Source: an uncultured Alphaproteobacteria bacterium (GTDB lineage Bacteria; Pseudomonadota; Alphaproteobacteria; Rhizobiales; Rhizobiaceae). From it: DNA of 64,000 nt. The stretch spans positions 168,871-232,870 of the forward strand of contig CAWBWL010000008.1 in assembly GCA_963792485.1 (NCBI GenBank), given 5' to 3'. Positions 7,041 through 64,000 of this stretch are shown piece after piece. Position numbers and translations under genes: made by a program. The notes beneath the pieces are model-generated. The model was given only the letters and a program-made list of their open reading frames with translations. It had not been told where the DNA came from and did no database searches. How positions within the stretch are numbered: position 1 is the stretch's first letter; each line of letters begins with the position of its first letter.

Positions 7041-9092
7041 TCAACTATCCAAAAAGCTCCGCAGCTTCCTGCGACCTGCTCGGATGCTTCAGCTTCCTGC
7101 AGCGCCTTCGCCTCGATCTGCCGTATCCGCTCGCGCGTCACGCAGAACTGCTGGCCGACTTCTTCCAGCGTGTGGTCGGTGTTCATGCCGATGCCGAAGC
7201 GCATGCGCAGGACGCGCTCTTCGCGCGGGGTGAGCGAGGCGAGGACGCGGGTTGTGGTTTCGCGCAAGTTCGCCTGGATGGCGGCGTCGATGGGCAGCAG
7301 CGCGTTTTTGTCTTCGATGAAATCGCCGAGATGCGAATCCTCCTCGTCGCCCACCGGCGTTTCGAGGCTGATCGGCTCCTTGGCGATTTTGAGAACCTTG
7401 CGCACTTTCTCAAGCGGCATGGCGAGCTTTTCGGCCAGCTCTTCCGGCGTCGGCTCGCGGCCGATTTCGTGCAGCATCTGGCGGCAGGTGCGCACGATCT
7501 TGTTGATCGTCTCGATCATGTGCACCGGAATGCGGATGGTGCGCGCTTGGTCGGCAATCGAGCGCGTGATCGCCTGGCGTATCCACCAGGTCGCATAGGT
7601 CGAGAATTTGTAGCCGCGGCGGTATTCGAATTTGTCGACCGCCTTCATCAGGCCGATATTGCCTTCCTGGATGAGGTCGAGGAACTGCAGGCCGCGGTTG
7701 GTGTATTTCTTGGCGATGGAAATGACGAGGCGCAGGTTGGCCTCGACCATTTCCTTCTTGGCGATGCCCGCTTCGCGCTCGCCCTTCTGCACCTGATTGA
7801 CGATCTTGCGGAATTCGAGAACCGGAATGGCCGTTTCCTGCGCGATTTCCTGAATCTCGGCGCGGATGCCCTTGATCGTCTCTTTCTCGGACTTGGTGAA
7901 TTCCTTCCAGCCGCGCCCGGCCAGGTTTGACACCGACTGCATCCAGTTCGGATCGAGCTCGGAGCCGGAATATTCCTTGAGGAAATCCTCGCGCTTGACG
8001 CCATAGCTCTCGGCAAGACGCAGCAGGCGGCCTTCGTTCTGCACGAGCCGCTTGTTGATGTCATACAGATGCAGCACCAGCGCCTCGATGCGGGCATTGT
8101 TGAGCGACAGCGACTTGACGGCGGTGACCAGCTCATCCTTCAGCTGCTTGTAGCGGCGCTCCTGGCTGGTCGACAGATTGCCGGTGGCCGCCATGCGGTT
8201 CTCGACCTGCTGGTCCTGCAGCTTGCGCAGCTTCTTGTAGGTGTCGGCGATCGTGTCAAGGATTTCCATGACCTGCGGGCGGATTTCCGCTTCCATCGCC
8301 GCGAGCGACAGGTTGACCTCGTCCTCTTCTTCTTCCTCTTCCTCGATCTGGATGCCTTCGCCGCCGACATTGGTGATGTCTTCTTCGTCGCGCCGCGCAT
8401 TGTAGCGCTTGGTGCGCTCGTCAATGCGCGCCGCGCACTTCTTCGGCCGGCCGCTCCACCTGCGGCGCAGCCTTGGCTTCCGGGCCGGCATAGGTGGTTT
8501 CGAGATCAATGATCTCGCGCAGCAGCGTGCGGCCTTCGTTCAGCTCATCGCGCCAGATGATGATCGCCTGGAATGTCAGCGGGCTTTCGCAAAGGCCCGC
8601 AATCATCGTCTCGCGGCCGGCCTCGATGCGCTTGGCAATGGCGATTTCGCCTTCGCGCGACAGCAGCTCGACCGCGCCCATTTCGCGCAAATACATGCGC
8701 ACCGGATCGTCCGTGCGGTCGGTCGGCTCTTTCTTGGTGGTGACGGCGACAACGGCCGAGCCGGTCGCCTCGACAATGTCGCCGACTTCCTGCTCTTCCT
8801 CCTGCGCCTCTTCCTTCTCTTCTTCCGCGCCCTCTTCCTCTTCGACGACATTAATGCCCATGTCGGAGAGCATGGACATGGTGTCCTCGAGCTGGTCGGA
8901 GGTCACTTCCTCCTGCGGCAGCACGGTGTTGAGTTCGTCAAGCGTCACATAGCCGCGCTTCTTGGCGGCCTTGATCATCTTCTTGACCGCATCATCCGAA
9001 AGGTCGAGAAGCGGACCATCCGTCGTGGTTTCACGCTCGGTCTCGGCTTCTTCTTTTTCTTTCGTCTTCGTTGCCATGAAAGAATTCTCCAA
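7041..9092 (-). pseudogene. rpoD: RNA polymerase sigma-70 factor RpoD, interrupted by at least two 1-bp indels (about 7085 and 8430-8500)
   Basis: N-terminal regions 1.1/1.2 (ORF 8421..9092) and regions 2-4 (ORF 7004..8509: [38 protein letters not shown] ...) lie in different frames. The C-terminus [18 protein letters not shown] is readable only after removing one base near 7085. Confidence 0.9.
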
Positions 9093-9333
9093 TCGAGCGC
9101 GCGGACAGGGGCGGAAAACGGCCCGCCTGCCTTTAGCCGGTTATGACCCTTGACCTGTTAAAGCGCGATTAACCTTGATTTTCCCCCGCCGCAGCCAGGG
9201 GCATGCCTATAGAAATGTGGTTTCAAACCTGTTTTTCAACCGGCGGACCGGGATTCTTGGCGCCGGGCGGCGTGATTCCCTCATTTTGCCCGCGCGTCAA
9301 GGCCGATTCCATGATTCGGGGGTAAAAAGCGAA

Positions 9334-11259
9334 TCAATTCGCGGACTTGGACCCCACCCGCCCGGACATGACGCCGAACCCGTCGAGCAAAGCTTCGGTG
9401 GCGTTGGCGTTGTGCATTTGCGCGCGAATGTCGAGAAGCCGCTCGAAATTCTCGTCATTTGCCTCTGCCGCAAGCGCTGCTTCGGCAAAGCGCAGCTCCT
9501 TGTTGAGGTTGCGCGTCAAATGGTGCAGGTGCAGCGCCTGCCGCCACGCTTCGCGCACATCTTCAATCGCCGCGTCAGGCATGGCCACCCAAAGCTGCGA
9601 GCGCGCCACGAGCCCGGCGAGTATGTCAAGCGTCGGCCCCTGCCCTGCGCCGCTGAGCAGCTTCTCCAGTCCGCCATTAGAGCTGAGATCGGCAACAGCA
9701 AGCACCGATAGCATGGCGCTGTGCAGACTTTGCAGATCACCGTTGGGCAGTTCGATGTCGGTAAAAGCCGCAAAATCCTCTTCAATCAGCGCCGGATGAT
9801 GCACCGCCATCATCAGGATCGCCGCCTCGCGCAGCGCCACGCCCGCTTGCGGCCCGCGCACCAGCGCCGAGCGCGTCGAGATTTTCCGATACCGCGAACC
9901 GCCCCTTGGCCTGTCCCGGTTTCGAATAGCCTGAAGATGCGGCGCGCTCGCCGGCATTGCGCGGCCGCTCATTGGTGCCAAAGAACGAGCGCATGCGCTC
10001 GCGCAAATCCTGCGCATAATGGCGGCGGATGCTTTCGTCCCCAATCGGCGCAGTCACAGCCCGCAGCCGCTGTTCCAGCTCCGCGCGCCGCTCGGGTGTA
10101 TCAAAGCTTGCCAGCCGACGTTTCGCGCGACCAGATCATGTCGATCAGCGGCCGCGCTTCACTCGAGAACTTGCGCAAACGTCTCCGGCCCGCCGGACTT
10201 GACAAGATCATCCGGGTCCTTGCCGTCCGGCAACAGCGCAAAGCGCAGCGACTTGCCGGGCTTCAAAAGCGGCAGCGCCATATCCGCCGCCCGCAGCGCC
10301 GCGCGCATGCCCGCCTGATCGCCGTCAAAACACATCACCGGTTCAGGCGCCATGCGCCACAACAGCTCAAGCTGGTTTTCCGTCAGCGCCGTGCCAAGCG
10401 GCGCAACCGCGTGATGGAATCCCGCCTGCGCCAGCGCGATCACGTCCATATAGCCTTCAACCGCAATAACGAGGCTCTTCTCCTGCACGGCTTTGCGGGC
10501 GCGGGCAAAATTGTAGAGTATCTGCCCCTTGTGAAACAGCTCGGTCTCCGGCGAGTTGAGATATTTGGCAGGCGCGTCCGCCGCCATTGCCCGCCCGCCA
10601 AACGCGATCACGCGCCCGCGCGAATCTTCAATGGGATACATGATCCGGTCGCGGAAGCGGTCATAGGAGACGGGTATATCATCGCCAAACACGACAAGCC
10701 CGCAGGCTTCGATCTGGTCCTTTGCAATGCCTCTTCCAGCCAGGAATTCTTTCAGGCCCGACCGGGTCTCCGGCGCATATCCAATATGAAACGCGCTCTG
10801 CGTCTGCGCCGTCAGCCCGCGCCCGCGCAAATAGGCCCGCGCTTTCGCCCCCTCCGGCGCTTGCAATTTCTCCAGAAACCAGCCCGTGGCAAGCTTCATC
10901 ACATCATGCAGGCTCGCCCGCTCCTGCTCGCGCTTTTCGGCGTCCGGATCCCGGTCCGGCAGCGGCACGCCTGCCATGATGGCGATCTGCTCGACAGCTT
11001 CTGGAAAGTTCAAACCCTCAAGCTCAACCAGAAAACGGAAATGATCGCCGGACACGCCGCAGCCGAAGCAATGATAGCGCCCTTTGCGGTCCTCGCAGTG
11101 AAAGCTCGGCGACTTCTCGCCATGAAACGGACAGCAAGCCCAATGATCGCCGCGCCCCGGGTTCGACTTTTTCTTGTCAAACGTCACCCGCTTGCCGATG
11201 ACCGATGATATCGGCACCCGGTCACGGATTTCCTCCAGAAATGTAGGCGTAAAGCGCAT
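9334..11259 (-). pseudogene. dnaG: DNA primase DnaG, frameshifted around 10044-10160
   Basis: Zn-finger CPFHGEKSPSF, the TOPRIM region and the C-terminal helicase-binding domain are present but in two frames. dnaG-rpoD is the classical operon order. Confidence 0.85.
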
Positions 11260-11504
11260 GTTGCTCCAATAGCGGCGCCGGGACCCGGCTTCGGCTAAAT
11301 GTGTCTGCTACAGACAAATACATCCCCTGTCGCGAGAAAGCGACCTTGCAAGCTGTCCGAATCCCCCAGTTTATTTCGCCCGGCGACACCGCCGGTAACC
11401 ATTCATCCCGATTATTCACGTGACGTGATTATTGCTTCTTGCAACTTACTTGGCCTGCTGCCACAACCACTGCGGCACATCTCATGCAAATTCAGGGGCA
11501 GTTC

Positions 11505-13367
11505 ATGGCAATACGCATCGGCACTAACGGCGCCAACACGATCAGCGGCACAAACCAAAGCGACATAGTCTTCGCATTTGGGGGTGACGACCTCATCAGC
11601 ACCGGTGCTGGCAATGACTGGGTTTTCGCCGGCGCAGGCAATGACCAGATTTTCGCGGGCGACGGCAATGACTGGGTGTTTGCCGGGACCGGCAATGACG
11701 TTGCATCTGGCGGCAATGGCAATGACTTTCTTTATGGCGAAGCCGGAAACGACGTGCTCGACGGCGGCCGCGGCAGCGACATTGTCGATGGCGGCTCAGG
11801 CAGCGACACATTGATTTTCACCGATGCCGAACGCGGCGGCCTTGACCGCTACATCGGCGGCAGCGGCCAGGACTCGCTTGTGCTGGAGTTCGCAGCAGGG
11901 CGCTGGGCGGATGCTGCCGTGAAGGCGGAAGTCATTGCCTATCTCGACTTTCTCGCAGCGGGCGGCGCCGGCAATTTCACCTTCACGACCATGAACCTAA
12001 TCGTCAGCAGCGTAGAAGCGCTCGTCGTAAAGGTTGACGGCATCATCATCGACCCGCGCGCAGGCGGCAACACAGCGCCAACCGGCGTCGCCGACAGCTA
12101 CAGCACCGGCGAAAACGGCATTCTCACCGTCTCCCCCGCCACGGAGCGCGGCACGCTTGTTGACAATGACAACACTGGCACCGGCGCTTTCACGGTCGAG
12201 CTGGTCACAGGTCCGGCCGACGGTGCGCTGACGCTCAATGCCGATGGCACGTTCAGCTTCAATCCCGGCGCCGCGTTCGACTACCTGAATGCGGGCCAGT
12301 CTGCGATTGAGACTTTCACCTACCGGATCATCAACAACGCGGGCGCGTCCGGTCCAATTGCCGTGACGCTCAATATCACTGGCGCAAATGATGCGGCGGC
12401 AATCACCGGTAACTTGTCGGGAGCCATGAAAGAGGACAGTGTCGAAGAAGACAACGAAACCTATATTCTGACCACAAGCGGTCAAATCAACGTCGCGGAC
12501 GCCGATGCCGGACAGGCAGGCGTTGGCAATGCTGGCACATATGAAGGCGATTACGGTACACTGGTCCTCGCGTCTGACGGCAGCTGGGAGTACACGCTGA
12601 ACAACAGCTCGCCCGCCGTGCAGTCACTGGGCGAAGGCGTCACAGTCACGGACTCGTTCGAAGTAACCTCCATCGACGGCTCGGCAACACAGTCCATCAG
12701 CATAACGGTCGAAGGCACAAACGATTATCCAAGCCTGTACGGCGAAATGACAGGCACTGTGAACGAGGATGGGTCCACGGAGACCAATGAAGCCGGGACT
12801 TTGACGGCAACCGGACAGATCATTGTTTTTGACGACGATACCGGTGAATCGGGAGTTGCCGGAGCTGACGATCATCGTAGCTTATACGGCACGCTGGCTG
12901 TCGCTGAGGACGGAAGCTGGACCTATACTTTGGACAGCAACCTAGCCGAAATTCAGGCCCTCAGGGGTGGGGAAATCGTTGTCGACGCTATAATCGTCCC
13001 GACAGTCGACGGAACGGGAGCCACGGTCGCCATTATCATTGAAGGCGAGAACGATGCCGCGTTTGTTGATGGAATTTTCTCCGACACAATCACGCTGGCC
13101 TTTGAGGACACAAGCGCCGAAGGCTTCGTCACAGTTTCAGACGTGGACACAGGTGAAAGCGGCGTCGTGGCTGGCACCTATGCAGGCCTCTATGGCGATC
13201 TCACAATGGATGCCGACGGGCTCTGGATCTACCAGATTACCAATTTCGATCTTCCATTCGACGAAGCGACGACGTCGGTTTACGAAGGCTTCGCGGTTGA
13301 GACGCTGGGCGGCGACGTATTCAGCATCGACATCACAATCCAGCAAGACGGCTTCATCCTCGGCTAA
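11505..13367 (+). CDS. RTX calcium-binding repeat / VCBS-repeat protein, probable type I secretion substrate
   Basis: N-terminal GGxGxDxxx nonapeptide repeats (GNDWVFAGAGNDQIFAGDGND...). Downstream are repeated xDxDxGESG ... YGTLxxxxDGSWxYTL blocks typical of VCBS domains. No signal peptide. Confidence 0.7.
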   Translation: MAIRIGTNGANTISGTNQSDIVFAFGGDDLISTGAGNDWVFAGAGNDQIFAGDGNDWVFAGTGNDVASGGNGNDFLYGEAGNDVLDGGRGSDIVDGGSGSDTLIFTDAERGGLDRYIGGSGQDSLVLEFAAGRWADAAVKAEVIAYLDFLAAGGAGNFTFTTMNLIVSSVEALVVKVDGIIIDPRAGGNTAPTGVADSYSTGENGILTVSPATERGTLVDNDNTGTGAFTVELVTGPADGALTLNADGTFSFNPGAAFDYLNAGQSAIETFTYRIINNAGASGPIAVTLNITGANDAAAITGNLSGAMKEDSVEEDNETYILTTSGQINVADADAGQAGVGNAGTYEGDYGTLVLASDGSWEYTLNNSSPAVQSLGEGVTVTDSFEVTSIDGSATQSISITVEGTNDYPSLYGEMTGTVNEDGSTETNEAGTLTATGQIIVFDDDTGESGVAGADDHRSLYGTLAVAEDGSWTYTLDSNLAEIQALRGGEIVVDAIIVPTVDGTGATVAIIIEGENDAAFVDGIFSDTITLAFEDTSAEGFVTVSDVDTGESGVVAGTYAGLYGDLTMDADGLWIYQITNFDLPFDEATTSVYEGFAVETLGGDVFSIDITIQQDGFILG

Positions 13368-13418
13368 TCGCGCTGCGACTTGCATTGATCTAAAGCGCCG
13401 CCTGCGGGCGGCGTTTCT

Positions 13419-13877
13419 TTATCCGAGCAACGCTTTGATAACCCCGCTCGCTTTGCCAAAATCCATCTGCCCGGAAAACTGCGCCCGCAGTTCCGCCATA
13501 ACCTTGCCCATATCCTTGATCGAGGCCGCGCCTGTCTCCTTGATGATGGCGGCGATGGCTGCCTTCGTTTCCTCATCCGACAATTGCCTGGGCATATATC
13601 CCTGAATGATCACAATCTCGGCCCGCTCCTTGGCAGCGAGTTCGGGCCGGCCGGCCTTGTCATAGATCGCCGCTGATTCTTCGCGCTGCTTCACCATTTT
13701 GGTGAAAAGCTGCAACAGTTCATCATCGCTCGCAGCTTCCTTGCCAGTGCCCCGGTTGGCGATGTCGCGGTCCTTGATCGCCGCCTGCATCATGCGCAGC
13801 GTCGAAAGCCGGTCTTTCTCGCCAGCCTTCATGGCAGTCTTCACGTCCTCGGTAATTTTCTCGCGCATATCCGGCAT
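13419..13877 (-). CDS. GatB/YqeY domain-containing protein
   Basis: Full-length similarity to the YqeY family. Confidence 0.85.
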   Translation of the reverse strand: MPDMREKITEDVKTAMKAGEKDRLSTLRMMQAAIKDRDIANRGTGKEAASDDELLQLFTKMVKQREESAAIYDKAGRPELAAKERAEIVIIQGYMPRQLSDEETKAAIAAIIKETGAASIKDMGKVMAELRAQFSGQMDFGKASGVIKALLG

Positions 13878-14026
13878 CCTCTTTTCGCCGCGTGCAATAA
13901 CATGGTTGACATTAAGCGCAAGGAATTGACCCCTTCCCTCTGCTCCACTATGGGATCGGCCTTAGCCAGACAGATTCCGGAAAAGAGCGCCGCTGCGATC
14001 CTTCGCGCGCGCCAGATGAAAGCCGC

Positions 14027-15238
14027 ATGATGAGCGAGACACAGGCAAAGACCGAAGGATGGACCGCGCACAAGCCGACCGCTCTGCTTGTGCTGGCGGA
14101 CGGCACGGTCATCGAGGGCAAGGGCGCAGGCGCGACAGGTTCGGTCGCCGCCGAGGTCTGTTTCAACACTGCGCTGACTGGCTATCAGGAAATTCTCACT
14201 GATCCCTCCTATGCCAGCCAGATCGTCACTTTCACCTTCCCGCATATCGGCAATATCGGCGCCAATGACGAGGACATTGAGGATTTGCACCCGGCCCGCC
14301 GCTCCGGCGCGGTGGGGGCTATTTTCAAGGCGGATATCACCAATCCATCCAGCTACCGCTCCGCCCAGCACTTTAATGACTGGCTGAAGAAGCGCGGCAT
14401 CATCGCACTGAGCGGTATCGATACCCGTGCGTTGACGACGCTGATCCGCGAAAAAGGCATGCCCAACGCCGTCATCGCGCATGACCCGTCCGGCAAATTT
14501 GACGTGGACGCACTCAGGAAACAGGCGCGGGCGTGGTCAGGCCTTCTCGATTTGGACCTGGCCAAGGACGTCACCTCTGGCCAGAGCCAGAGCTGGAGCG
14601 AAGGCGCATGGGTCTGGAACGAAGGCTTTGCCGCTGCTGATGACACGGGCATCCACATTGTGGCGCTCGATTATGGCGTCAAGCGCAACATATTGCGGCT
14701 CATGGCAGGTCTCGGTGCGAAGGTCACCATTTTGCCCGCTTCGTCTAGCGCCGAAGACGTATTGGCGCACAAGCCCGACGGCGTGTTCCTCTCCAATGGC
14801 CCAGGCGACCCAGCTGCGACCGGCGCATACGCCGTGCCTGAAATCCGCAAATTGGTTGAAAGCGGCATTCCACTGTTTGGTATCTGCCTCGGCCACCAGA
14901 TGCTGGCGCTGGCGCTGGGCGGAACAACCCTGAAAATGCATCAGGGCCATCACGGCGCCAATCATCCGGTGAAGGATTTCACCACCGGCAAGGTCGAAAT
15001 CGTCTCAATGAACCACGGCTTTGCGGTCGATAGAAAGTCGCTGCCAAAGGGCGTCGAGGAAACCCATGTCTCGCTGTTTGACGGCTCCAACTGCGGTTTG
15101 CGCTTGACTGGCAAGCCGGTCTTCTCTGTCCAGCACCACCCCGAGGCGTCGCCCGGTCCGCAGGATTCGCACTACCTCTTCCGCCGCTTCTTCAACATGA
15201 TCCGCGAAAAGCGCGGCGAGCCAGTGCTGGCGGAGTGA
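14027..15238 (+). CDS. carA: Carbamoyl-phosphate synthase small subunit
   Basis: Canonical CarA N-terminus, and a glutamine amidotransferase domain with GICLGHQ and HHPE motifs. Confidence 0.9.
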   Translation: MMSETQAKTEGWTAHKPTALLVLADGTVIEGKGAGATGSVAAEVCFNTALTGYQEILTDPSYASQIVTFTFPHIGNIGANDEDIEDLHPARRSGAVGAIFKADITNPSSYRSAQHFNDWLKKRGIIALSGIDTRALTTLIREKGMPNAVIAHDPSGKFDVDALRKQARAWSGLLDLDLAKDVTSGQSQSWSEGAWVWNEGFAAADDTGIHIVALDYGVKRNILRLMAGLGAKVTILPASSSAEDVLAHKPDGVFLSNGPGDPAATGAYAVPEIRKLVESGIPLFGICLGHQMLALALGGTTLKMHQGHHGANHPVKDFTTGKVEIVSMNHGFAVDRKSLPKGVEETHVSLFDGSNCGLRLTGKPVFSVQHHPEASPGPQDSHYLFRRFFNMIREKRGEPVLAE

Positions 15239-16850
15239 TCAGGACGACAGCCGGATCAGCGAAATCTTGTCGGCGATCTTGGCAAATGCATCATCCAGCA
15301 GCGCGCGGTTGGGCACGTCAATATAGTGATCAGCGTCGCTCGCGCAGTCTTTGAGCATATTGCCGGTTGTGACATTCGGCTCTTCCAGGCGGATCGTGTA
15401 GATCTCCACGCCGTCATTCTTGGCGTTCGTGCAGGCCTGCAGCGTCTTGTCGTTCATCGCATTGGTCACCTGCGAAGACGAGCCGCCAGACAGGCCAAGC
15501 CGGCCATCGGCGAGATATCCGAAACTCGTATAGGCTGAGCCGAGCGAGTTGGAGATCTGCCCAAGATTATTGGTGCCGTCGGTCAGCAGAACGAGAATTT
15601 TTCGCACACCCGGGTTATTTTCCGGTTGCCCCTCTTTGAACGGCGCGCGGGAGGAAAGCACGCGCCAGCCCCAGGCAGCGCCCTTCGATAATGTTGGTGT
15701 AGCCAAGCGCCTGCAGGGAGTCCACCTTGGATTTCAGCGCGCTGAAATTTGTGCTCAGAGGCACAATCGGCTGCACGTCGCAGCCGAAATTCGGACCCTT
15801 GCCGACTGGATAGCCACCGTAAAATGTCTGATTGCTAAGGTCAGGCGTAACTGCGCTCCAAGCTGAGCGACTCCTCGATCTGGCTGGAAAAGTGAGGCTC
15901 TTGAAGCTGGCGGCGTACACCGCGCCATAGCGCTCCATCCGCTCAGTGGCGGTTCCCTGCGCGATTGCCGCCGCGCCATCCGGCAGATAGGAGTTGGGAA
16001 AGCTTCCGGTGTCCGGCTCATCATTGGCAAAGGCTGGAATGAACAGCGTCTCGGGATCTGCGGCGTTCGGTTCTTCGTCATTTACGTCATAAGGGTCTGC
16101 CGCCGTTGACGCCCGCGCTTCGACGCAACCTTCCCATTTCACGCCCATATTGCGCATGAGTGCAAACCGGCTCACGCCCGGATCGAGGTCGCTCTGGTCT
16201 ATTGGGCTCTTGGCAAGGGCGTCGATCCAGTCGGCCGGGTCGCGCTTTACTTTCCCGTCGCCATCATACTCCGGTCCGAACTGCGCGCCCACATTTACTT
16301 TGCTGGAGAACGGCACAAGCGCAAACTTGAGTGAGCCGGCGCGTGTGTTTTGTGCGGCCATTGTGTCAATCAAACCGTTGACCGCGTCTTTCATCGCCGC
16401 AAGCTTGCCGCCCGACATGGAGCCGGTCGTGTCGAGAGCCAGGGCAATCTCATAGTTTGCATAGATGATCTCGGTCGATGCGGTGCTGGTAAGATCGACG
16501 GTGGAGACACCGAGCACGCCGCCGAAATGCACAGGCGCGACAGCATTGACCGAAATGCTGACGGTTTTTCCAGAGCGCACAACTGACAGGTTCGAGAAGC
16601 TGATCGAGAGATTGGCGCGCAGAAACTTCTCTGCGATTTCATCTGCCTGCGCGTCGGTTATCTTGTCAGCCTCATGCGCAACGGCAAGAACCGCGCTATC
16701 CACTGCTGTCTGCAGATCAGACTTGAGGCGCAGAATGTTGGAGTAATCAACTGCAAGACCGACGCCCATGAGCAGCGGCACAGAAATGACAGCAGCCATA
16801 ATGGCGAACTGACCGCTTGTGTCACGCAGAAACCGCCTGATTGCCTTCAC
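15239..16850 (-). pseudogene. TadE/TadG-like Flp-pilus-associated protein with vWA domain, frameshifted near 15690
   Basis: N-terminal TadE-like segment (RRFLRDTSGQFAIMAAVISVPLLM), then a vWA domain (ALDTTGSMSG ... ILVLLTDGTNN) that continues in a second frame. Confidence 0.7.
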
Positions 16851-16973
16851 CTTGATCCGCTCCGCCTGAATAATTCCGGCAGGCTAGCGCGAAAACGCGA
16901 AGAGAAGCCTAATTCAGGTCAGAAACAGCCGAAAAATCATGCCGATCGGTAAACAAATCCTGAAGATCAACCG

Positions 16974-17912
16974 TCAAATGTCGGCGTTAAACGTGTCACA
17001 CGCCTCAAGCTTGCCCGATTGAATGCCGCGCTTGAGCCACTCAACACGCTGTGCAGACGTGCCATGGTTGAACGCGTCCGGCACAACATAGCCCTGCGTG
17101 CGCCGCTGCAGCGTGTCATCGCCGATCTGTTGCGCGGCATTCAGCGCCTCTTCAAGATCGCCGTCTTCGAGCAAGCCCTTCTGTGCGGTGGACCGCGCCC
17201 AGATGCCCGCAAAACAATCCGCCTGAAGCTCGACGCGGATTGACATTGCATTGGCCTCGCTCTGCCCCATCTGCTGGCGCATCTGGTTGAACTTCGGCAA
17301 AACGCCGGTGATGTTCTGCACGTGATGGCCCACTTCGTGCGCCAGCACATAGGCGCGGGCAAAATCGCCCTTCGCGCCGAACTGCCGCGACAGCTGGTCA
17401 TAGAACGACAGGTCAATATAAAGCTTCTGGTCGCCCGGACAGTAGAAAGGCCCGGAGGCCGCGCTCGCAAAGCCGCAGGCCGAGCGCACCTGCCCGTCGA
17501 AGAGCACCAGCGTCGGCTCGGGATAGTCTTCGCCGAGCGATTGGAAAACACCGGACCAGACGTCCTCGGTTTCGGCAAGAACCACGCCGACGAATTTCTT
17601 CATCTCGTCCGCCCGCGCCGGATCAACGGGCGCTCTCGGTTCGCTCTCCGTCACCGAACCGCCGCCATCCTGCCCGACCAGCACTTGCAGCGGATCAATG
17701 CCGCAGGCTTTCAGGGCGAAAAACAGGATAACCAGCATCACAATGCCGGAAATGCCGCCGCCGCGCGCCGAGCGCATGCCCGAGCCGCCGCTGGGCAGGC
17801 GGAACCCGCCACGCCCGATGCCGCCGGAAGACCCGGACCCATCGCGCTGGTCCTCCACATTCTGGCTCTCACGCCGGCCTTTCCAAAGCATTGCATGCAC
17901 TCCCGAATTCAA
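16974..17912 (-). CDS. ypfJ: YpfJ-family putative neutral zinc metallopeptidase
   Basis: TM anchor, then the conserved YpfJ core including HEVGHH. Confidence 0.8.
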   Translation of the reverse strand: MNSGVHAMLWKGRRESQNVEDQRDGSGSSGGIGRGGFRLPSGGSGMRSARGGGISGIVMLVILFFALKACGIDPLQVLVGQDGGGSVTESEPRAPVDPARADEMKKFVGVVLAETEDVWSGVFQSLGEDYPEPTLVLFDGQVRSACGFASAASGPFYCPGDQKLYIDLSFYDQLSRQFGAKGDFARAYVLAHEVGHHVQNITGVLPKFNQMRQQMGQSEANAMSIRVELQADCFAGIWARSTAQKGLLEDGDLEEALNAAQQIGDDTLQRRTQGYVVPDAFNHGTSAQRVEWLKRGIQSGKLEACDTFNADI

Positions 17913-18097
17913 TTCCTTGGCCTGACTTATGGCAGGAATTGGGGAGCAAGTTCAATAGGCCGCGATCTGGACAGGGCCAGACGAAATCACGGCGGGCGGG
18001 CCTCTGGAGAGAACCCGCCCGCCGCGCCCCGCGCCGCAACACCTGAACTGACAGCTCGCCTCAGTTGGCCATCGAGGCGATGCTGCCGGTCAGGATA

Positions 18098-18652
18098 TCA
18101 CTTCGGCAGCAGAACCTTGTTGACGACATGAATGACGCCGTTCGACTGGTTGACGTCGCCGATGGTCACTTTCGACGCGCCGCCGCTTTCATCAAGGATC
18201 AGGATTGAATTGCCGCGCATTGTCGCCGTCAGCGCGTCGCCGCTGACCGCACTGAAATTGTACTTGCCGCCATTTGCCTTGATGCGCTTCTTCAGCGTCG
18301 CCGCCGACAGCTTACCGGCAACCACATGCGCGGTGAGAACCTTGGTCAAAGTTCCCTTGTTCTCCGCCTTCAACAGCGTGTCAACGGTTCCGGCGGGCAG
18401 CGCGGCAAAACCGGCATTGACCGGCGCGAACACGGTGAAGGGACCCGCGCCCTGGAGCGTCTCGACCAGGCCCGCAGCCTTGACGGCGGCAACCAGCGTT
18501 GTGTGGTCCTTCGAATTCACGGCGTTCTCAATGATGTTCTTTTCCGAGAACATCGGCGCGCCGCCGACTTCGACCATCGCGGCGAAAGCGGGCGCGGCGA
18601 GAGAGGCTGCAATGGCGAGCGCCGCAGTGGTGCGAACGAGTGATTTGATCAT
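18098..18652 (-). CDS. Fasciclin (FAS1) domain protein with signal peptide
   Basis: TVFAPVNAGFAALPAGTVDTLL ... GVIHVVNKVLLP are fasciclin H1/H2 motifs. Confidence 0.85.
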   Translation of the reverse strand: MIKSLVRTTAALAIAASLAAPAFAAMVEVGGAPMFSEKNIIENAVNSKDHTTLVAAVKAAGLVETLQGAGPFTVFAPVNAGFAALPAGTVDTLLKAENKGTLTKVLTAHVVAGKLSAATLKKRIKANGGKYNFSAVSGDALTATMRGNSILILDESGGASKVTIGDVNQSNGVIHVVNKVLLPK

Positions 18653-18949
18653 GGAATATGTCCCTGTGTGAGAGTTGAAAAGGTGAACTGAAAGCCCCAT
18701 CCTCGTGCGGCTCAAAAGGGCAAACGGAACAGCGCTTGATCAAGTTTCAAAACCGCGGACACGCTTGCATCACGAAACCGTGTCCTCGAAACTGCCCGCC
18801 GCTTGCCCTGAAATTGAACGATGAGATCGTCTCAACGGGCATATCTGGGAATATATGTGGATGGATCCGGGGCATGTGATGGGGTGAGAGGCGGTTTGGC
18901 GAAGCCACTCTCCACCTGACTTCCCCCCTCCGCCGCGCAAGAGCGCGGC

Positions 18950-19006
18950 CCCTCCCCCACAAGGGGGGAGGTTAAGCGCCGCGCCCATTCTCCCCCCTTG
19001 TGGGGG
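18950..19006. repeat. Pair of oppositely oriented GC-rich hairpin units (CCTCCCCCACAAGGGGGGAGG / CTCCCCCCTTGTGGGGGAG), REP-like
   Basis: The two units are reverse complements of each other. A related unit (CTCCCTCCCCCTTGTGGGGAGGGAG) recurs at 36670-36695. Confidence 0.6.
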
Positions 19007-19743
19007 AGACGGCTGCGAAGCAGCCAGAGGGGGGAAGTCAATCCAGACAGCACTTGAATTTTTCTGCATTTTCCCCCATCCTCACACGCAGGGATTGGGG
19101 AACGGCGGTGAAAACACCATCTGCCAAAACGCGAAAACCCAGAGCGGCAAAACCCGCCGCGCCTTCCCCCGCGCCCGCCGCGAACGCCGAGGCTCCCATC
19201 GACGAGCCGCTCACCTTCGACGATGACGGCATCAAGCGCGTGCAGGACATTATCCGCAACGCCCGCGCCACATGGTTTGCCCTGCTCGGCGCGCTGGTCT
19301 TCGCCTCGGTGACGCTGGCGAGCGTCAAGGATATTTCCTTCTTTGTGGACACGGTGGAAACCAAGCTGCCCATCGTCGGCATTTCCGTGCCGGTCGTCTC
19401 GTTCTTCTGGGCCGGCTCGCTGCTGATCGCCGCGCTCTACGCTTACTTTCACCTCTATCTGGAGCTGCTCTGGCAGGCGCTGGGCGATTTTCCGGCGCGT
19501 GACAAAACCGGCGCGCTGCTCGCCGACCGGATCGAGCCGCGGATCGTCGCCGATACGGCCATGTTCAGGGGTGAAGCGCGTTTTGGCGAAGCCAAACGAA
19601 GGTTCTGCGATTTGGCTTTTCCAGCGAGTGAGGACAAATGGTCTATGGTCAACAAATCGTGCCAGTCGCAGGTTTTGAAGTCCGAACGCGTGGAGCCATT
19701 ACAAAGGGCGGGGCGACGGATGAGGCGATCCTTTACCGCTTGA
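19000..19743 (+). CDS. Hypothetical membrane protein; true start probably downstream (about 19108)
   Basis: Long ORF with a Pro/Ala-rich N-terminal region and two hydrophobic helices (ATWFALLGALVFASV..., VVSFFWAGSLLIAALYAYF). No homolog recognised. Confidence 0.35.
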   Translation: MGETAAKQPEGGSQSRQHLNFSAFSPILTRRDWGTAVKTPSAKTRKPRAAKPAAPSPAPAANAEAPIDEPLTFDDDGIKRVQDIIRNARATWFALLGALVFASVTLASVKDISFFVDTVETKLPIVGISVPVVSFFWAGSLLIAALYAYFHLYLELLWQALGDFPARDKTGALLADRIEPRIVADTAMFRGEARFGEAKRRFCDLAFPASEDKWSMVNKSCQSQVLKSERVEPLQRAGRRMRRSFTA

Positions 19744-21691: not shown

Positions 21692-21825
21692 GCTCTGACC
21701 AAACGGCCTCCCCCGGACTTATCCCCCAAAATCGCACCAGCTTCTCCCCCGTTCGGGGAATACTTTGAGCGGCGGCGGAATGTAAATTCGGTTCTCGAGT
21801 GGGCTAACTCAAAAGGAACCGGAAA

Positions 21826-22983: not shown

Positions 22984-23029
22984 ATGCTGCAATGTTTTGA
23001 TTACGGCTGCAAACAAGACATTTGAACCA

Positions 23030-23054
23030 AGGGCGGCGTCTTTACATCGCCGCC
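23030..23054 (+). terminator. GC hairpin (GGGCGGCG-9nt-CGCCGCCC) downstream of the secreted-protein gene
   Basis: Perfect 8-bp stem. The trailing T-tract is weak. Confidence 0.35.
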
Positions 23055-44329: not shown

Positions 44330-45298
<969 letters not shown>

Positions 45299-48206: not shown

Positions 48207-48210
48207 GGCG

Positions 48211-52872: not shown

Positions 52873-53796
52873 ATGCAACAGCAAAAATACGCCTTTATCG
52901 GACTTGGACATCTCGGCGCAAACTTGGCCGGCAGTCTGCTGCGCGGCGGCTTTGACGTCACCGTCTATGACCGGGACGGTCAGGCCTTGGAACGCCTTGC
53001 CACGCTCGGCGCGAAAACCGCGGCCTCTCCATCAGAGGCGGCCAGCTACGCCGGAAACGCCATCACCTGCCTGCCTTCTCCCACTGTTTCCGAGCTTGTG
53101 CTCGCCGGACCCGGCGGCTTGCTCGAAGGCCTGCCGCAAGGCGGAACATGGATCGAGATGTCCACCAATGGCCGCGACGAGATCCTGCGACTCGCCGCGC
53201 TCGCTGCATCCAAGGGCATCCATACGCTGGAGTGCCCCGTAACGGGCGGCGTCCACCGCGCGGCGGCCGGTGAGATCACCGCGCTGGTCGGTGGTGACAA
53301 AGCGCTGTACGAGGTCCATCTGCCCGCTGTTTCCGCCATGACGGGCCGATCGTTTCATATGGGAGAGATCGGCTCGGCTGCTGTCATCAAAGTCATCACC
53401 AACATGCTCGCCTTCATCCATCTGGCGGCGGCGGGCGAAGCGATGATGCTGGCCAAGAAAGGCGGGCTGGACCTTGCCCAGGCCTTCCACGCAATCGCCG
53501 CGTCCTCGGGCAATTCCTTTGTCCACGAAACCGAGACGCAGCTGGTCCTTTCGGGCTCCTACAATATTGGCTTCACAATGGACCTTGCCCTCAAGGATCT
53601 GGGCTTTGCGCTCGGCATGGGCAAAGAGTTCGGCGTGCCGCTTGATCTCGCCGCGATAGTGACCCAGGCGTTCATACGCGGCAAGGCCGCTTATGGCGGC
53701 GACGCGTGGTCGACCAAGCTGATCAAACTTTTGGAAGACGTCACAGACACGCCGCTGCGGGCGGAGGGCTTTCCGGAAACCTTAGCCCCGGCCTAA
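52873..53796 (+). CDS. NAD(P)-dependent 3-hydroxyacid dehydrogenase (HIBADH / 2-hydroxy-3-oxopropionate reductase family)
   Basis: FIGLGHLGANLA Rossmann motif plus the NAD-binding_11 C-terminal domain. Overlaps the stop of the upstream dehydratase. Confidence 0.85.
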   Translation: MQQQKYAFIGLGHLGANLAGSLLRGGFDVTVYDRDGQALERLATLGAKTAASPSEAASYAGNAITCLPSPTVSELVLAGPGGLLEGLPQGGTWIEMSTNGRDEILRLAALAASKGIHTLECPVTGGVHRAAAGEITALVGGDKALYEVHLPAVSAMTGRSFHMGEIGSAAVIKVITNMLAFIHLAAAGEAMMLAKKGGLDLAQAFHAIAASSGNSFVHETETQLVLSGSYNIGFTMDLALKDLGFALGMGKEFGVPLDLAAIVTQAFIRGKAAYGGDAWSTKLIKLLEDVTDTPLRAEGFPETLAPA

Positions 53797-54516
53797 GCCA
53801 CGACAATTGGCGAACCTTTGCTGACTCGGCGATAGAGATCGACCACGTCCTGATTGATCATGCGCACGCAGCCGGAGGACATGGCCTGGCCGATTGTCCA
53901 CCATTCGGGCGAACCGTGCACGCGGTAGCCGGTGTCGGCGCCGTTTTTGTAGATATACATGGCGCGCGCGCCGAGCGGGTTTTCAAGGCCGCCGGGCTGG
54001 CCGCCTGCCCATTTGGCGACTTCCGGCTTGCGGGCGATCATTTCCTTTCGGCGGTGTCCAGACTGGCCATTCCTTGCCGTGATTGATTAGAGCGCGGCCT
54101 TGCCATTCAAACCCGGCCTTGCCGATGCCGACCCCATAACGGATCGCATCACCGCCTTCCTGCACGAGATACAGGAACTTCTCCGCCGTGATAACAACGA
54201 TGGTGCCCGGCGCTTCTCCGGTCGGGTCGACCACAACTTGCCGCCGCCATTTCGGGTCGACCTTCTGGTACGGGATCGCTGGAAGCGTGAAGCCGCCATC
54301 GACGAAAGAAGCATACATGGCTTTCGGATTCTGGACATAGGGATCAACAGAGATCTTCGGACGCACGGTGCCCGTCGGCATCATGTCCTGCATGCCTTCC
54401 GGATCAAAAGCGACTTCGCGCCCGCCGACAACGCAGCCGGACAAAGCGAGCGAACCCAGACCCAAAAGCGCCTTGCGACGCGATATGCCGTTATGCCACG
54501 CGAATTTCTCAGACAT
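53793..54516 (-). pseudogene. L,D-transpeptidase (YkuD domain) lipoprotein, frameshifted near 54030
   Basis: Lipoprotein signal LLGLGSLALSGC. Catalytic HGSPEWWTIGQAMSSGCVRM is in the second frame (ORF 53793..54041). Confidence 0.8.
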
Positions 54517-54713
54517 TTGTCCCATTCCCAACCAGCCGACCCAAAAACACTTATCGGCCATTATGGTTTCCGAAGTGTGAAACCCTTTGACGGCAGAACG
54601 CGGCTATTTTGCGGTTTCAACACCAATCCGGCGCCTCCCTGTCCGAAGGGAGACGCCGGTTTTACGGCGGTCAGGAGTGGGGCGCTGAACTGGCCGCCGG
54701 TATGGGGCAAACC

Positions 54714-59935: not shown

Positions 59936-60031
59936 TCAGACCTTGTTGAACCTCATGCCGGGCTTCACGAAAATGGACAGGGACCTGCCCGCAGCAGGAG
60001 CGATCTTTGGGAGATGAATGGTCTTGGTCAT
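59936..60031 (-). CDS. Candidate 31-aa ORF (MTKTIHLPKIAPAAGRSLSIFVKPGMRFNKV) upstream of the SagB-like gene
   Basis: ATG preceded by an AAAAGG-type RBS. It is followed by the intrinsic terminator, then the SagB-like gene starts 68 nt after the stop. No Cys/Ser/Thr enrichment. Coding status unproven. Confidence 0.2.
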   Translation of the reverse strand: MTKTIHLPKIAPAAGRSLSIFVKPGMRFNKV

Positions 60032-60243
60032 TTTTTTGCCTTTTCTGGGTTGGGTTAACAACGACCTTTTTTAGTTGTGTATCTGCAATAGTTGCAACTT
60101 GAAATTGCTTCTTTACGTAAGGAAAATTTGCGCACGATCAGCGGCTCGTGTGCTGAATTCGCTTATTTCAGCGGTCAGTAGAATCGGTGCAAATACCAAA
60201 TTCGTAGAAGGGGAGAACTTCTATGAACAAGGGGTTAAAAAGA

Positions 60244-60455
60244 TGATTAACACAAATGCAAGAGAGCTAAAAGTCAACATATTCCCTTCGCCTAGCCTAT
60301 CGTCGAGCGTAATCCTGCAAGATATTGTTCGTGGCTTGAATGAAGCGAAAAAGTTCGCCGAAATGCATTCTGATCGGGAAATACTATATTTTATATCAAT
60401 GGCACTTCATTGCACCAAAGAGAAACTATTACTCTCTATATATGATAGTAATTGA
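60244..60455 (+). CDS. Hypothetical 70-aa protein in AT-rich islet
   Basis: GC about 35% in a roughly 62% GC background. RBS AAGGGG before ATGATTAAC. Divergent from the XRE regulator gene. Confidence 0.3.
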
Positions 60456-60483
60456 GTGCATGATCAAAGTATTAGGAGATTTT

Positions 60484-61218
60484 TTATGGAAACGCAAGAA
60501 CTTCTGAAGCCTGATGAAATTTTACCTTGCGCATTGCTTTCCAGACCTTTGTTCTCTTTGGCACGGCAGTAATATAGAAACTCACTTTGCCATATTCGCT
60601 ATCAGGAGAAACATCGGCCAAACCTGCGTAGATGATATCTGAAGACGCCACCACACGCCCGACAAGGAAGGTGGGTGGCGTATTTTTTTTCAAATCGACG
60701 CCGATAAAGAACGCCAAGCCATCCCGGAAAACTATGATTCCCGAATGCACGCCCCGCCCACGCGGATGTAGGACGCCAGCAACGCCTCCCGGCCTTGTTA
60801 TCCGCCTAAAACTAGTAACACCTCCCTCACGCTTTACCGCCATCAATGAGCAAGCAACGAGATTTGGATCTTCGGGCACAGAAAAGTTGACGTAATACAA
60901 CCCATCGATTAGCGCCGGCCGGGTTGACAACCTCTCAGCTGAAACCACGCGTTCGATGAACTTCCTCTGCCGGTCCGTCAGCGCCTCAATATTCCGAAAA
61001 TCCGTTTCAGGATCCGCCTCCCGAAACAGCGTTCCGACATCCACCTGAAAATACGCGCAGATATTGTCGATCACCCGCTCGTTTGGCAGGTTCTTGCCGG
61101 TCACATAGCTGTTGAACTGCTGCCTGTTCAGCCCAAGCTCGCGCGCAACGTGGGCGTGGCTTTTCTCTTTCGCACACAGCCGGCGAAGATTGCCCGAGAA
61201 AATAGCGCGTATCGACAT
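60484..61218 (-). CDS. XRE-family HTH transcriptional regulator with an uncharacterised C-terminal domain of about 150 aa
   Basis: LRRLCAKEKSHAHVARELGLNRQQFNSYVTGKNLPN is a HTH_3 motif. The C-terminal domain is not recognised and has no S24 peptidase motif. Confidence 0.7.
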   Translation of the reverse strand: MSIRAIFSGNLRRLCAKEKSHAHVARELGLNRQQFNSYVTGKNLPNERVIDNICAYFQVDVGTLFREADPETDFRNIEALTDRQRKFIERVVSAERLSTRPALIDGLYYVNFSVPEDPNLVACSLMAVKREGGVTSFRRITRPGGVAGVLHPRGRGVHSGIIVFRDGLAFFIGVDLKKNTPPTFLVGRVVASSDIIYAGLADVSPDSEYGKVSFYITAVPKRTKVWKAMRKVKFHQASEVLAFP

Positions 61219-61391
61219 TGACTGTCTGGGATAGTGCCCGCCCCTGTGAGAACTTGTCCGGCCAGGACTCTTTTGATTTTATAGTCTGGCCTGCCCTTGG
61301 GGAACTATAATCCACAAAAAACGTTCCCGAAAACCGGACTTAGGTTGCATTTTTTGCGAATCAAGTTTGCGGCGCGCGCATCTGGCGAGCA

Positions 61392-64000
61392 TTAACGCCC
61401 CGGCCTTCCCGTCTTCCCCGGCCGCCGCTTCGCCCGCTTCGCATCCCCCGCATCCTCATACGACCCCGCCCCGGCCCGCTCGCGCCGCACCGGCCTGACA
61501 TCCGAACCCAGCGGAACTTCCGTCCGCCCGACCGTCATCTCGTCCAGCTTGTTCTTGCGGAACAGCCCGCCGCCCTGCGAGCCGGCCGTCCGGCCGCGTG
61601 ACGGGCTGCCGGTTTCCATCTCCCGCGCCATCGGGTCATCGGCGATCGCAAGTTCCGTCTCCCTCAGCCGCTTGATCTCGTCGCGCAGCCTTGCGGCGGT
61701 TTCGAAGTCGAGGTCGGTGGCGGCGAGGCGCATTTGTTTTTCGAGATGCTCGATATGGGTCTTGAGGTTCGCCCCCATCATCGCGCCCTGTTCGGCGAAG
61801 CCGGAAATGTCGGCGCGCACATGGTCGCGCTCGTAGACCGAGCCGAGAATGTCGCCGATATTCTTCTTGATGCTTTCCGGCGTGATGCCGTTTTCGAGAT
61901 TGAACTGCGCCTGCTTCTCGCGGCGGCGGCTGGTCTCGGCCATCGCCCGCTCCATCGAGCCGGTGATATGGTCGGCATAGAGAATGACCTTGCCGTCAAC
62001 ATTGCGCGCCGCGCGGCCGATGGTCTGGATCAGCGAGGTTTCCGAGCGCAGGAAGCCCTCCTTGTCGGCGTCGAGAATGGCGACCAGCGCGCATTCGGGA
62101 ATGTCGAGCCCTTCGCGCAAAAGGTTGATGCCGACCAGCACGTCGAATGTGCCGAGCCGCAGGTCGCGCAGGATTTCGATGCGCTCCAGCGTGTCAATGT
62201 CCGAATGCATATAGCGCACCCGCACGCCATGCTCATGCAGATATTCGGTGAGGTCCTCGGCCATGCGCTTGGTCAGCACCGTGACGAGCGTGCGGTAGCC
62301 CTTGGCCGTCGTTTCGCGGATTTCGCCGAGCACATCATCGACCTGCGCCTTGGCGGGGCGCACCTCGACCGGCGGATCGATCAGGCCGGTCGGGCGGATC
62401 ACCTGTTCGGCGAACACGCCGCCGGACTGCTCCAGCTCCCACTTGCCTGGCGTGGCGGAGACGGCCACGGTCAAAGGCCGCATCGCGTCCCATTCCTCGA
62501 AGCGCAGCGGGCGGTTGTCCATGCAGGACGGCAGGCGGAAGCCGTATTCGGCCAGCGTCGCCTTGCGGCGGAAATCGCCCCGGTACATCGCGCCGATCTG
62601 CGGGAATGGTCACATGGCTCTCGTCGATGAACACCAGCGCATTGTCCGGCACATATTCAAACAGCGTCGGCGGCGGCTCGCCGGGCTTGCGGCCGGTCAG
62701 ATAGCGCGAATAATTTTCGATGCCGGCGCAGGAGCCGGTCGCTTCCAGCATTTCAATGTCGAACGTGCAGCGCTGCTCCAGCCGCTGCGCTTCAAGCAGA
62801 CGCCCGGCGCGGTTCAGCTCCTCCAGCCGCATTTTCAGCTCGGCCTTGATGCTCTTCACCGCCTGCTGCAGCGTCGGGCGCGGCGTGACATAATGCGAGT
62901 TGGCGTAGATCTTCACCTGCTTGAGGTCGTCGGTCTTCTGGCCGGTCAGCGGGTCGAACTCGGTGATGCTTTCGATCTCGTCGCCAAACAGGGTGATGCG
63001 CCAGGCCCGGTCTTCCAGATGCGCCGGGAACAGTTCGAGCGTGTCGCCGCGCACCCGGAATGAGCCGCGGGTGAAATCCATGTCGCGGCGCTTGTATTGC
63101 TGCGCCACCAGATCGGCGAGCAGCTGCCGCTGGTCGATCCGGTCGCCGACCTTCATCTGGAAGGTCATGGCCGTGTAGGTTTCAACCGAGCCGATGCCGT
63201 AAATGCACGAGACTGAGGCGACGATGATGACATCGTCCCGCTCCATCAGCGAGCGCGTCGCGGAATGGCGCATCCGGTCGATCTGCTCGTTGATCGAGCT
63301 TTCCTTCTCGATGAACGTGTCGGTGCGCGGCACATAGGCTTCCGGCTGGTAATAATCGTAATAGGAGACGAAATATTCGACCGCATTGTTCGGAAACAGC
63401 TGCTTCATCTCGCCATAAAGCTGCGCCGCCAGCGTCTTGTTCGGCGCGAGGATAATGGCCGGCCGCTGCGTCTCCTGGATCACCTGCGCGGCGGTGAAGG
63501 TCTTGCCCGAGCCGGTGACGCCGAGCAGCACCTGGGTGCGGTCGTCATTGGCGATGCCCTCGACCAGATCCCGGATCGCCGTCGGCTGGTCGCCGGACGG
63601 GTGTGAACTCGGTGACCATCTCGAACCGCACGTCGCCTTCGGATTTCTCCGGACGCGCGGGCCGGTGCGGCGTCCACTTCTTGCCGTTCTTGAACAGCGG
63701 ATTGCCGGACTCGATCAGGGCGGCCAGCGCCTCGACGGTGGCCGTCACGCCGGACGGCAGCCTCGCGGCGTCCTCAAGCGAAATATCCAGGCCGGCGACC
63801 GGATTAAGTCCGGCGGCGGCGCGGGTTTTCGGATCGGACGAGCCGCCAATGGACGTGCCGCGCGAGGTGCGCAGATTGCCCGTCGCCTTCTTGATATTGT
63901 CCGCCCGCGCCGCGTCATTCGGATCAACCGGCTTTTCCCGCTGCGCAGCCTTCTCCGCCTTGACCCGGTGCGTGCCAGCCTTGGAGCGGATCTCGCGCGT
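61392..64000 (-). pseudogene. uvrB: Excinuclease ABC subunit B, at least two frameshifts (about 62340-62590 and 63530-63600). The N-terminal extension may continue past the window end.
   Basis: [10 protein letters not shown] Walker A, helicase motifs, the beta-hairpin region and the C-terminal UvrB/UvrC interaction domain ([11 protein letters not shown]) are spread over three frames. Confidence 0.9.

Follow-up and report, generated by a model that had tools for sequence, protein, structure and literature searches.

Frame Breaks across the Window

The window analyzed here is a 64-kb stretch of DNA (contig CAWBWL010000008.1 of assembly GCA_963792485.1, positions 168,871 to 232,870) from an uncultured bacterium of the Rhizobiaceae. 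It has a G+C content of ~60% and a gene set typical of Hyphomicrobiales, including an OmpA-family gene, rpoD, dnaG, a gene for an RTX/cadherin adhesin, carA, a tadG-like gene, carB, and aatA, as well as an EF-G paralogue, trxB, greA, and uvrB. Among named organisms, Mesorhizobium and Rhizobiaceae are closest (RpoD ~85% and CarB 79–84% identical), and a scan of GTDB genomes with RpoD found relatives at no more than 86% identity. Of the ~55 genes in the window, 12 are broken by a total of 22 changes in reading frame, each of which was checked by following homologues across frames. These frame breaks are real features of the deposited sequence and not of the bacterium.

Breaks were located in four independent ways. 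With Pfam/NCBIfam profiles, a break is the continuation of a profile on the same strand into another reading frame. With blastx, in which the window was compared with all open reading frames (ORFs) of ~80 related loci, a break is a pair of collinear hits in different frames. Nucleotide alignments with close relatives reveal individual extra or missing bases, and frameshift-aware alignments of full-length homologous proteins to the DNA pin positions. Pfam profiles continue across frames in rpoD, uvrB, carB, aatA, and the EF-G-like, GGDEF-EAL, tadG-like, glutathione S-transferase (GST), and YkuD genes. Almost every event is corrected in the same way, by skipping one base, and the repaired rpoD, dnaG, uvrB, aatA, and kinase genes, along with others, align end to end with homologues after one or two bases are skipped.

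A simple frame plot of third-position G+C was too noisy for calling frames. A Viterbi caller based on codon usage was usable, although it flagged ordinary gene junctions too and assigned the OmpA-family gene to the wrong strand, which is why every candidate was checked by homology. The HigB/HigA (30078–30931), HepT/MNT (36906–37569), LysR/TrxB, and response regulator/kinase junctions resemble breaks and were rejected as ordinary pairs of adjacent genes.

The 22 events are uneven in type and in location. Insertions account for 20 and deletions for two (P = 6e-5), and none is inside any of the 692 runs of four or more identical bases in the window. The four genes rpoD, dnaG, carB, and uvrB contain 15 of the events on 16% of the window's length (P = 5e-8). 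The overall rate is ~1 indel per 2.9 kb; sites have a mean spacing of ~2.7 kb and are locally clustered, with four of the 21 gaps between sites shorter than 110 nt. Two long stretches, 1–7000 and 43–53 kb, have zero frameshifts, and neither in-frame nonsense mutations nor larger deletions were seen in the window. In rpoD, dnaG, and carB, the net shift is a multiple of three. A rule of net-zero shift was nevertheless rejected, given that the pattern has a chance probability of ~1/27 and is contradicted by nine other genes, each with a single uncompensated shift.

A preliminary description of the window, made from the sequence alone, had reported at least 20 frame changes, which is borne out as a slight undercount. 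The genes it listed are indeed broken: rpoD and dnaG are each broken three times and uvrB twice, and carB has seven events, including a compensating pair, rather than six. Three of the motifs it gave coincide with independently located sites, GCCGCCGAAG in aatA (34210–34219) and TTGCCGAAG (25403–25411) and TCGCGCCTG (25828–25836) in carB. In a literal sense the events are "both insertions and deletions," as it stated, with 20 of the former to two of the latter.

Close Relatives and the Public Record

Three products of the window, a 612-aa fragment of CarB (P0001), TrxB, and an 879-aa DUF4132 protein, are exact public entries from one 239,479-bp NCBI/ENA contig. These matches exclude the possibility that the indels were added after deposition.

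Four sister contigs (L003, L085, L090, and L091) belong to a single ENA assembly, ERZ25039524, have Flye-style names, and are the window's nearest relatives. Three of them (L003, L090, and L091) are 95–96% identical to the window, whose sample is possibly another one. In L091, carB, a 129-aa ORF, and the DUF4132 gene have the same local order as in the window, at 96% identity. Sister contigs are also broken, at positions other than those of the window. The carB gene is split into parts of 955 and 208 aa in L003 and into four ORFs in L091, the DUF4132 gene into two ORFs in L091, dnaG into parts of 563 and 83 aa in L085, and a PAD_porph gene into four ORFs in L090. The DUF4132 gene is whole in the window and in L090, and dnaG (642 aa) and rpoD (679 aa) are intact in a JGI contig, L084. 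None of the frameshifts in the window is kept in an orthologue: in the blastx comparison with ~80 loci and in the alignments, all relatives are in frame at these sites. Sister contigs additionally have a LysR gene that lacks its helix-turn-helix (HTH) domain, and insertions in their carB genes again outnumber deletions.

Truncated core proteins also occur among protein database hits. RpoD is truncated (468–583 aa vs. ~675) on at least seven long contigs that range from 44 kb to 2.9 Mb and are all ENA-only, and CarB is truncated (728–1122 aa vs. ~1143–1160) on long ENA and NCBI contigs. Entries of RpoD and CarB from named isolates are full length, except those labelled partial. In assemblies of this type, frameshifts in core genes seem to be a common problem.

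Five Indels in carB Combine Alleles of Two Haplotypes

The carB gene (23200–26688, + strand) has seven indel events, and its tblastn hits follow the frame series 1/2/1/2/3/1. Deleting seven inserted bases and restoring one missing base yields a protein of 1160 aa with a single, terminal stop. The first two events compensate each other. At 24726–24727, two bases are inserted: the window reads GA-TT-CA-GC, L003 reads GA-CA-GC, and L091 reads GA-TT-GC, so that the TT of L091 is followed by the CA of L003. At 24813, one base is inserted: the window reads CCG-C-G-AA, L003 reads CCG-G-AG, and L091 reads CCG-C-AA, so that the C of L091 is followed by the G of L003. Between the two, 29 residues of a conserved segment are garbled while the ORF remains unbroken. 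A +1 insertion at 25031 (ACGC[A]GCTC, with the inserted base in brackets) creates the stop that ends fragment P0001. The only deletion in the gene, of one base at 25404–25405, is equal to an overlap of both alleles (window GACTTGCC, L003 GACTTGGCC, and L091 GATCTTGCC). The remaining three events are +1 insertions. That at 25831 (TCG[C]GCC) is 2 nt from a difference between L003 and L091; at 26325, TAGC is a merge of TGC in L003 and GAG in L091 and creates a TAG codon; and at 26430, GCAG is a merge of CAG in L003 and GCC in L091.

In the three-way alignment, five of the seven carB indels are therefore exact hybrids of the L003 and L091 alleles, which are placed in series, merged, or, at 25404, overlapped. 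Six of the seven are within 2 nt of an L003/L091 difference, compared with a background of 0.23 (P = 8e-4). At all seven sites, the indel of the window is absent from both L003 and L091. Some indels of L091 show the reverse pattern; GCGCTTGG, for example, can be derived from GCG-CTGG and GCT-TTGG.

Repaired carB differs from the 95%-identical carB of L003 by 133 synonymous and 11 non-synonymous codons. Synonymous and non-synonymous differences number 58 and 4 before the first break and 75 and 7 after it. Because the ratio is unchanged past the first break, the supposedly dead part of the gene has not drifted neutrally and has remained under purifying selection; the comparison with L003 gives no sign of relaxed selection downstream of that point. 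Had seven indels accumulated through decay, differences in this part would be expected to be mainly non-synonymous, and there is no such excess.

The region around carB is itself variable. Over window positions 23086–26694, which contain carB, identity to L003 is 95.4%, and in the flanks (13059–19554 and 30720–31332) it is just 77–88%. Within carB, the window alternates in blocks, being L003-like at 100 sites, L091-like at 105, and private at 60, as a result of either recombination between lineages or a chimeric consensus. The 3' end of carB, including its stop codon, is part of a 75-nt direct repeat (26614–26688 and 29990–30064; 91% identical) that flanks a 3.4-kb insertion with the 129-aa ORF and the 879-aa DUF4132/DUF7737 gene. 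This element is present in L091 and L090 and absent from L003, and it looks like a site-specific insertion that duplicates the 3' end of carB. Upstream of carB (window 19550–23052 vs. L091 697–2923), a variable accessory cassette sits between conserved flanks. It consists of a LuxR-type response regulator, a histidine kinase, and a Kelch-like ORF in the window; the 96%-identical L091 has a 471-aa ORF and a BrnT toxin instead.

Breaks in rpoD, dnaG, and Other Genes

Three +1 insertions (8432, 7099, and 7071) split rpoD, the gene for sigma-70 (7045–9077, − strand), over three frames. Pfam places regions 1.1/1.2 in one frame and the non-essential region and regions 2–4 in another, blastx with 20+ relatives locates a frame switch at 8430–8449, and event sites were taken from a frameshift-aware alignment to the 679-aa protein P0121. 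The extra base of the first insertion (8430–8434, GTGCGC[G]GCGCGC) is absent from L084 and L085. The second insertion (7090–7102, CTGC[A]GGAAGCTG) contains CTGCAGGAAGCTG, the minus-strand motif that the preliminary description had placed in rpoD and that is exactly on this site. The third (7062–7074, TCGC[A]GGAAGCTG) is 28 nt from the second and in the same 10-mer context. In the window, CAGGAAGCTG is found solely at these two insertions, which cause the last 17 codons of rpoD, those of the conserved C-terminus, to be read in three frames. A systematic, motif-specific error at CGGAAGCTG, which has a sole further copy at 12911, was considered and not adopted.

The primase gene dnaG (9352–11265, − strand) likewise has three +1 insertions (~10164, 10109, and 9877). 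In Pfam, the zinc ribbon, DNAG_N, and Toprim domains are in one frame and DnaB_bind is in another, and blastx gives the frame series -2/-3/-1/-2. The sites were confirmed by alignment to the intact 642-aa DnaG of L084. Two +1 insertions, at ~62604 and ~63604, are present in uvrB (61395–64000, − strand), of which the latter is weaker. Pfam domains of uvrB are split between frames and both sites are backed by an alignment to UvrB of Escherichia coli. The NCBIfam model for UvrB begins to match at residue 38 of the ORF, and the same frame lacks a start codon upstream of that point.

The other broken genes each have one event, which in all but one case is a +1 insertion. In the tadG-like Tad/VWA gene (15242–16883, − strand; ~15683), the VWA profile is split over two frames, and blastx against the L003 homologue agrees with an alignment to the 535-aa L003 protein. 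In the sensor histidine kinase (20347–21718, − strand; ~21199), the N-terminal fragment matches residues 16–155 of kinases of 442 aa and an alignment to P0253 skips one base at 21199; a tblastn search of plasmids found no match for this N-terminus, and the matches came from a search of 1.84 billion proteins. The GST_N and GST_C domains of the GST gene (33024–33711, − strand; ~33390) are in different frames, and the site follows from alignment to a Paracoccus homologue. The aatA-type aminotransferase gene (33990–35179, + strand) is broken at ~34213, within GCCGCCGAAG; positions 1–55 and 55–361 of Aminotran_1_2 are in two frames, as supported by blastx and an alignment to a Sinorhizobium homologue with 76% identity. 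The exception is the EF-G-like GTPase (38518–40649, + strand), which has a 1-nt deletion at ~40175; positions 1–68 and 61–119 of EFG_IV are in two frames and the site was derived from a Sphingobium EF-G. Positions 2–100 and 95–236 of the EAL profile are in two frames in the PAS-GGDEF-EAL protein (40656–43116, − strand; ~41193), for which blastx and alignment agree. Lastly, in the YkuD L,D-transpeptidase (53796–54603, − strand; ~54048), profile positions 3–66 and 65–146 are in two frames, and the site was located by alignment to an Ensifer homologue.

Origin of the Frame Breaks

Comparison of the window with its relatives makes it highly probable that the breaks are consensus errors of a metagenome assembly in which reads of closely related, co-occurring strains were merged. 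The sample would have held several closely related Hyphomicrobiales populations, one of them with ~95–96% nucleotide identity to the window over shared regions and a more distant one that nevertheless reaches 95% identity in carB. At the consensus or polishing stage, the reads of these populations would have been stacked on a single contig. At adjacent bases that differ between haplotypes, the aligner would open gaps and the consensus would keep bases or columns of both alleles. Each merge would usually add one base and occasionally drop one, and thereby shift the reading frame. By extension, the same process may lie behind the 15 events outside of carB, and the reads themselves would lack the extra bases. 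A consensus of mixed reads would explain the bias toward insertions and the non-homopolymer contexts, and would account for the local clustering of sites. Concentration in conserved genes would follow because, in these genes, even reads from more distant relatives retain enough similarity for recruitment. Three observations are those expected of an artefact: repair restores full-length genes, close haplotypes have in-frame alleles, and, in carB, five indels are unions or merges of alleles at polymorphisms.

The preliminary description had judged a true loss of sigma-70, primase, and UvrB not credible, and the full length of the repaired genes, the purifying selection on carB, and the concentration of breaks in the most essential genes support that judgment. 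Its suggestion of uncorrected assembly or sequencing errors, possibly in a metagenome, gains support from sister contigs that are intact or broken elsewhere and from the carB indels that are hybrids of two observed haplotypes. What we would refine is the kind of error. Rather than random or homopolymer errors, the breaks are in all likelihood mostly one-base insertions at places where reads of ~95%-identical strains were merged.

Several points weigh against a merging of strains or limit how far it can be extended. The demonstration of hybrid alleles is confined to carB, and even there, sites 25031 and 25831, although near polymorphisms, cannot be composed simply from the L003 and L091 alleles and may reflect a third haplotype or an ordinary read error. 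Relatives of the window are just ~85% identical in rpoD and dnaG, at which the test for coincidence with polymorphisms is powerless, and the same limit applies to all 15 events outside of carB. At all 22 sites, support comes from comparing sequences and not from reads. The source contig is probably from a long-read assembly, as judged solely from the Flye-style names of its sister contigs. Two independent Logan contigs, found via TrxB, match the window at 99.8–100% without gaps, but they cover just the frameshift-free 43222–49398 and hence neither confirm nor refute any site. Sequence that is 99.8–100% identical is shared with runs ERR14374323 and ERR14374474. Look-ups of exact proteins (P0001, the 129-aa ORF, the response regulator, CarA, and the N-terminal fragment of RpoD) found no independent contigs over frameshift sites. 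Lastly, a rule by which inserted bases are synonymous alternatives of their neighbors was dropped as an argument, because it fits ~8 of 11 cases vs. the ~50% expected, a difference that is not significant.

An artefact could also arise without any mixing of haplotypes, from ordinary random read errors left by low coverage or incomplete polishing. Long-read bins with weak polishing typically have a rate like the ~1 indel per 2.9 kb seen here (PMC9262707), and the demonstrated hybrid origin leaves out carB sites 25031 and 25831 and every site outside of carB. Random errors should, however, be spread evenly, whereas 15 of the 22 events are in four conserved genes. Nanopore errors favor homopolymers and deletions, the opposite of what is seen here. 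Chance errors would also have had to reproduce two known alleles exactly in five carB indels and to place two insertions in an identical 10-mer, 28 nt apart, in rpoD. We consider this explanation unlikely. The location and type of the events likewise do not fit platform errors of the homopolymer type, as in 454, Ion Torrent, or nanopore R9 data, since 0 of 22 are in runs and 20 of 22 are insertions.

Alternatively, the indels could be real and the organism, or one strain of it, in early genome decay with recent pseudogenes. The indels are present in the deposited sequence, and some of the affected genes are dispensable (those for the GGDEF-EAL protein, the tadG-like protein, GST, the EF-G paralogue, and one L,D-transpeptidase). 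Pseudogene-rich genomes, such as those of Mycobacterium leprae, Sodalis, and recent host-restricted symbionts, resemble the window in having many frameshifted genes per unit length. In those genomes, core replication and transcription genes are spared, selection is relaxed, and deletions and nonsense mutations accumulate. In the window, by contrast, core genes are the main targets: essential single-copy genes are not spared, sigma-70, primase, CarB, and UvrB are the most affected, and the window contains no further copy of any of them. The repaired frame of carB is still under selection: despite seven indels, non-synonymous differences past the first break are as rare relative to synonymous ones as they are upstream. 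Mira, Ochman and Moran reportedly found in 2001 that bacterial mutation is biased toward deletions, whereas nearly all events here are insertions, and the nonsense mutations and larger deletions expected of decay were not seen. Moreover, the breaks that relatives have in these genes are at different positions, and no mutational mechanism is at hand for concatenated alleles. It is very unlikely that the indels are real, and if any are, they would be those of a few accessory genes at most.

That the genes are functional, with their breaks overcome by programmed ribosomal frameshifting or transcriptional slippage, is a far more improbable alternative. Almost all events need a skip of one base, and shifts sum to a multiple of three in rpoD, dnaG, and carB, which is the pattern that chance and the nine genes with uncompensated shifts already speak against. 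In programmed +1 frameshifting of prfB, one base is also skipped to produce the full protein. The prfB site is conserved across bacteria and has a shifty sequence, an in-frame stop, and a stimulator like a Shine-Dalgarno sequence. Such features are absent from the sites in the window, and the sites are unconserved. When 16 site contexts were compared, they had neither a slippery or shifty motif nor a homopolymer in common, and stops or rare codons did not recur at any set distance. The lack of a shared motif, together with relatives that are all in frame, excludes programmed frameshifting, and a density of 22 such sites in 64 kb would have no precedent among bacteria. Hardest of all to credit is that the extra bases are real in one strain and that sigma-70, primase, CarB, and UvrB are made by skipping at ~20 unrelated sites, which would amount to pervasive, motif-independent +1 recoding in a free-living Hyphomicrobiales bacterium.

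Relation to Known Assembly Errors and Consequences

The breaks are a known class of frameshift errors of metagenome assemblies, in a less familiar variant that involves collapsed strains and not homopolymers. Frameshifts are a typical defect of long-read genomes and metagenomes (10.1101/2021.08.23.457338), and Nanopore bins with less than 40-fold coverage need polishing (PMC9262707). As in the indel errors addressed by IDEEL and proovframe (10.1101/2021.08.23.457338; PMC9262707), conserved genes in bins from complex communities are split into adjacent ORFs, and fixes of one or two bases guided by homologues restore full-length products. The classical errors are homopolymer indels and deletions, whereas the window has none of its 22 events in runs of four or more bases and has 20 insertions. 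A closer match is to assemblies of the metaFlye type, in which genomes at ~95% identity are collapsed and consensus quality falls sharply (myloasm preprint, PMC12424758). The window has sister contigs at 95–96% identity, which is the kind of strain heterogeneity that leads to such polishing errors. That study gives only a genome-wide Q score, whereas the window has a base-level signature, two alleles in series; Flye or its polisher is only a candidate tool in our case. Assembly artefacts account for many apparent pseudogenes, whose occurrence varies with platform, assembler, and coverage and does not reflect biology (Cooley and Wright 2024, PMC11017572). This holds for the window as well, although that work treats isolate genomes and the cause proposed here is a mixed population in a metagenome.

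The breaks have no biological importance, and their consequences are practical. Until re-polishing, ORF boundaries, pseudogene calls, and estimates of gene content and completeness cannot be relied on for this contig and, presumably, for the rest of its bin. Gene fragments, such as the 612-aa piece of CarB, are already separate public protein entries, and the occurrence of truncated RpoD and CarB elsewhere on long contigs points to a common problem in such assemblies. The signature of non-homopolymer insertions, with two alleles in series and in conserved genes, could flag haplotype collapse from sequence alone. Checks centered on homopolymers would miss errors with this signature.

Other Features of the Window

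Two tandem genes resembling those for tRNAs (30914–30987 and 30989–31065, + strand) are 1–3 nt apart and adjoin HigB/HigA. They are of class-I size, yet their anticodons are CAG and AAG (both Leu), and their Rfam scores are just 59 and 50 bits. The acceptor stem of the second includes non-standard pairs, and this gene also has a deletion. Of their counterparts in L003 (13875–14021), one has a 6-nt anticodon loop (like Trp CCA minus one C) and the other has ATG (like His GTG with one change). The pair reflects either consensus errors in RNA genes too or unusual or decayed tRNAs.

The window has two type II toxin–antitoxin pairs, a HigB-like toxin with an HTH antitoxin (30078–30931) and a HepT ribonuclease with an MNT nucleotidyltransferase (36906–37569). 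The alphaproteobacterial small RNA ar15 (RF02345, 45 bits) is in an intergenic region at 43205–43319 (− strand) and adjoins the LysR gene. At 60001–62000, just below uvrB, G+C falls to 0.53 around an ORF for an RstR-like repressor (60487–61278), and this stretch may be a small foreign insert. The OmpA-family gene (1013–3163, + strand; 713 aa) has an antisense shadow ORF of 676 aa with an equally high third-position G+C, which fooled the composition-based caller, and its strand was settled by homology alone. Lastly, an aatA-type homologue with 81% identity is on PLSDB entry NZ_CP104135.1 (L087), the 3.52-Mb "plasmid pC101a" of Sinorhizobium sp. C101, with six listed features; judged from its 3.52 Mb, it looks like a chromosome or chromid that was filed as a plasmid.

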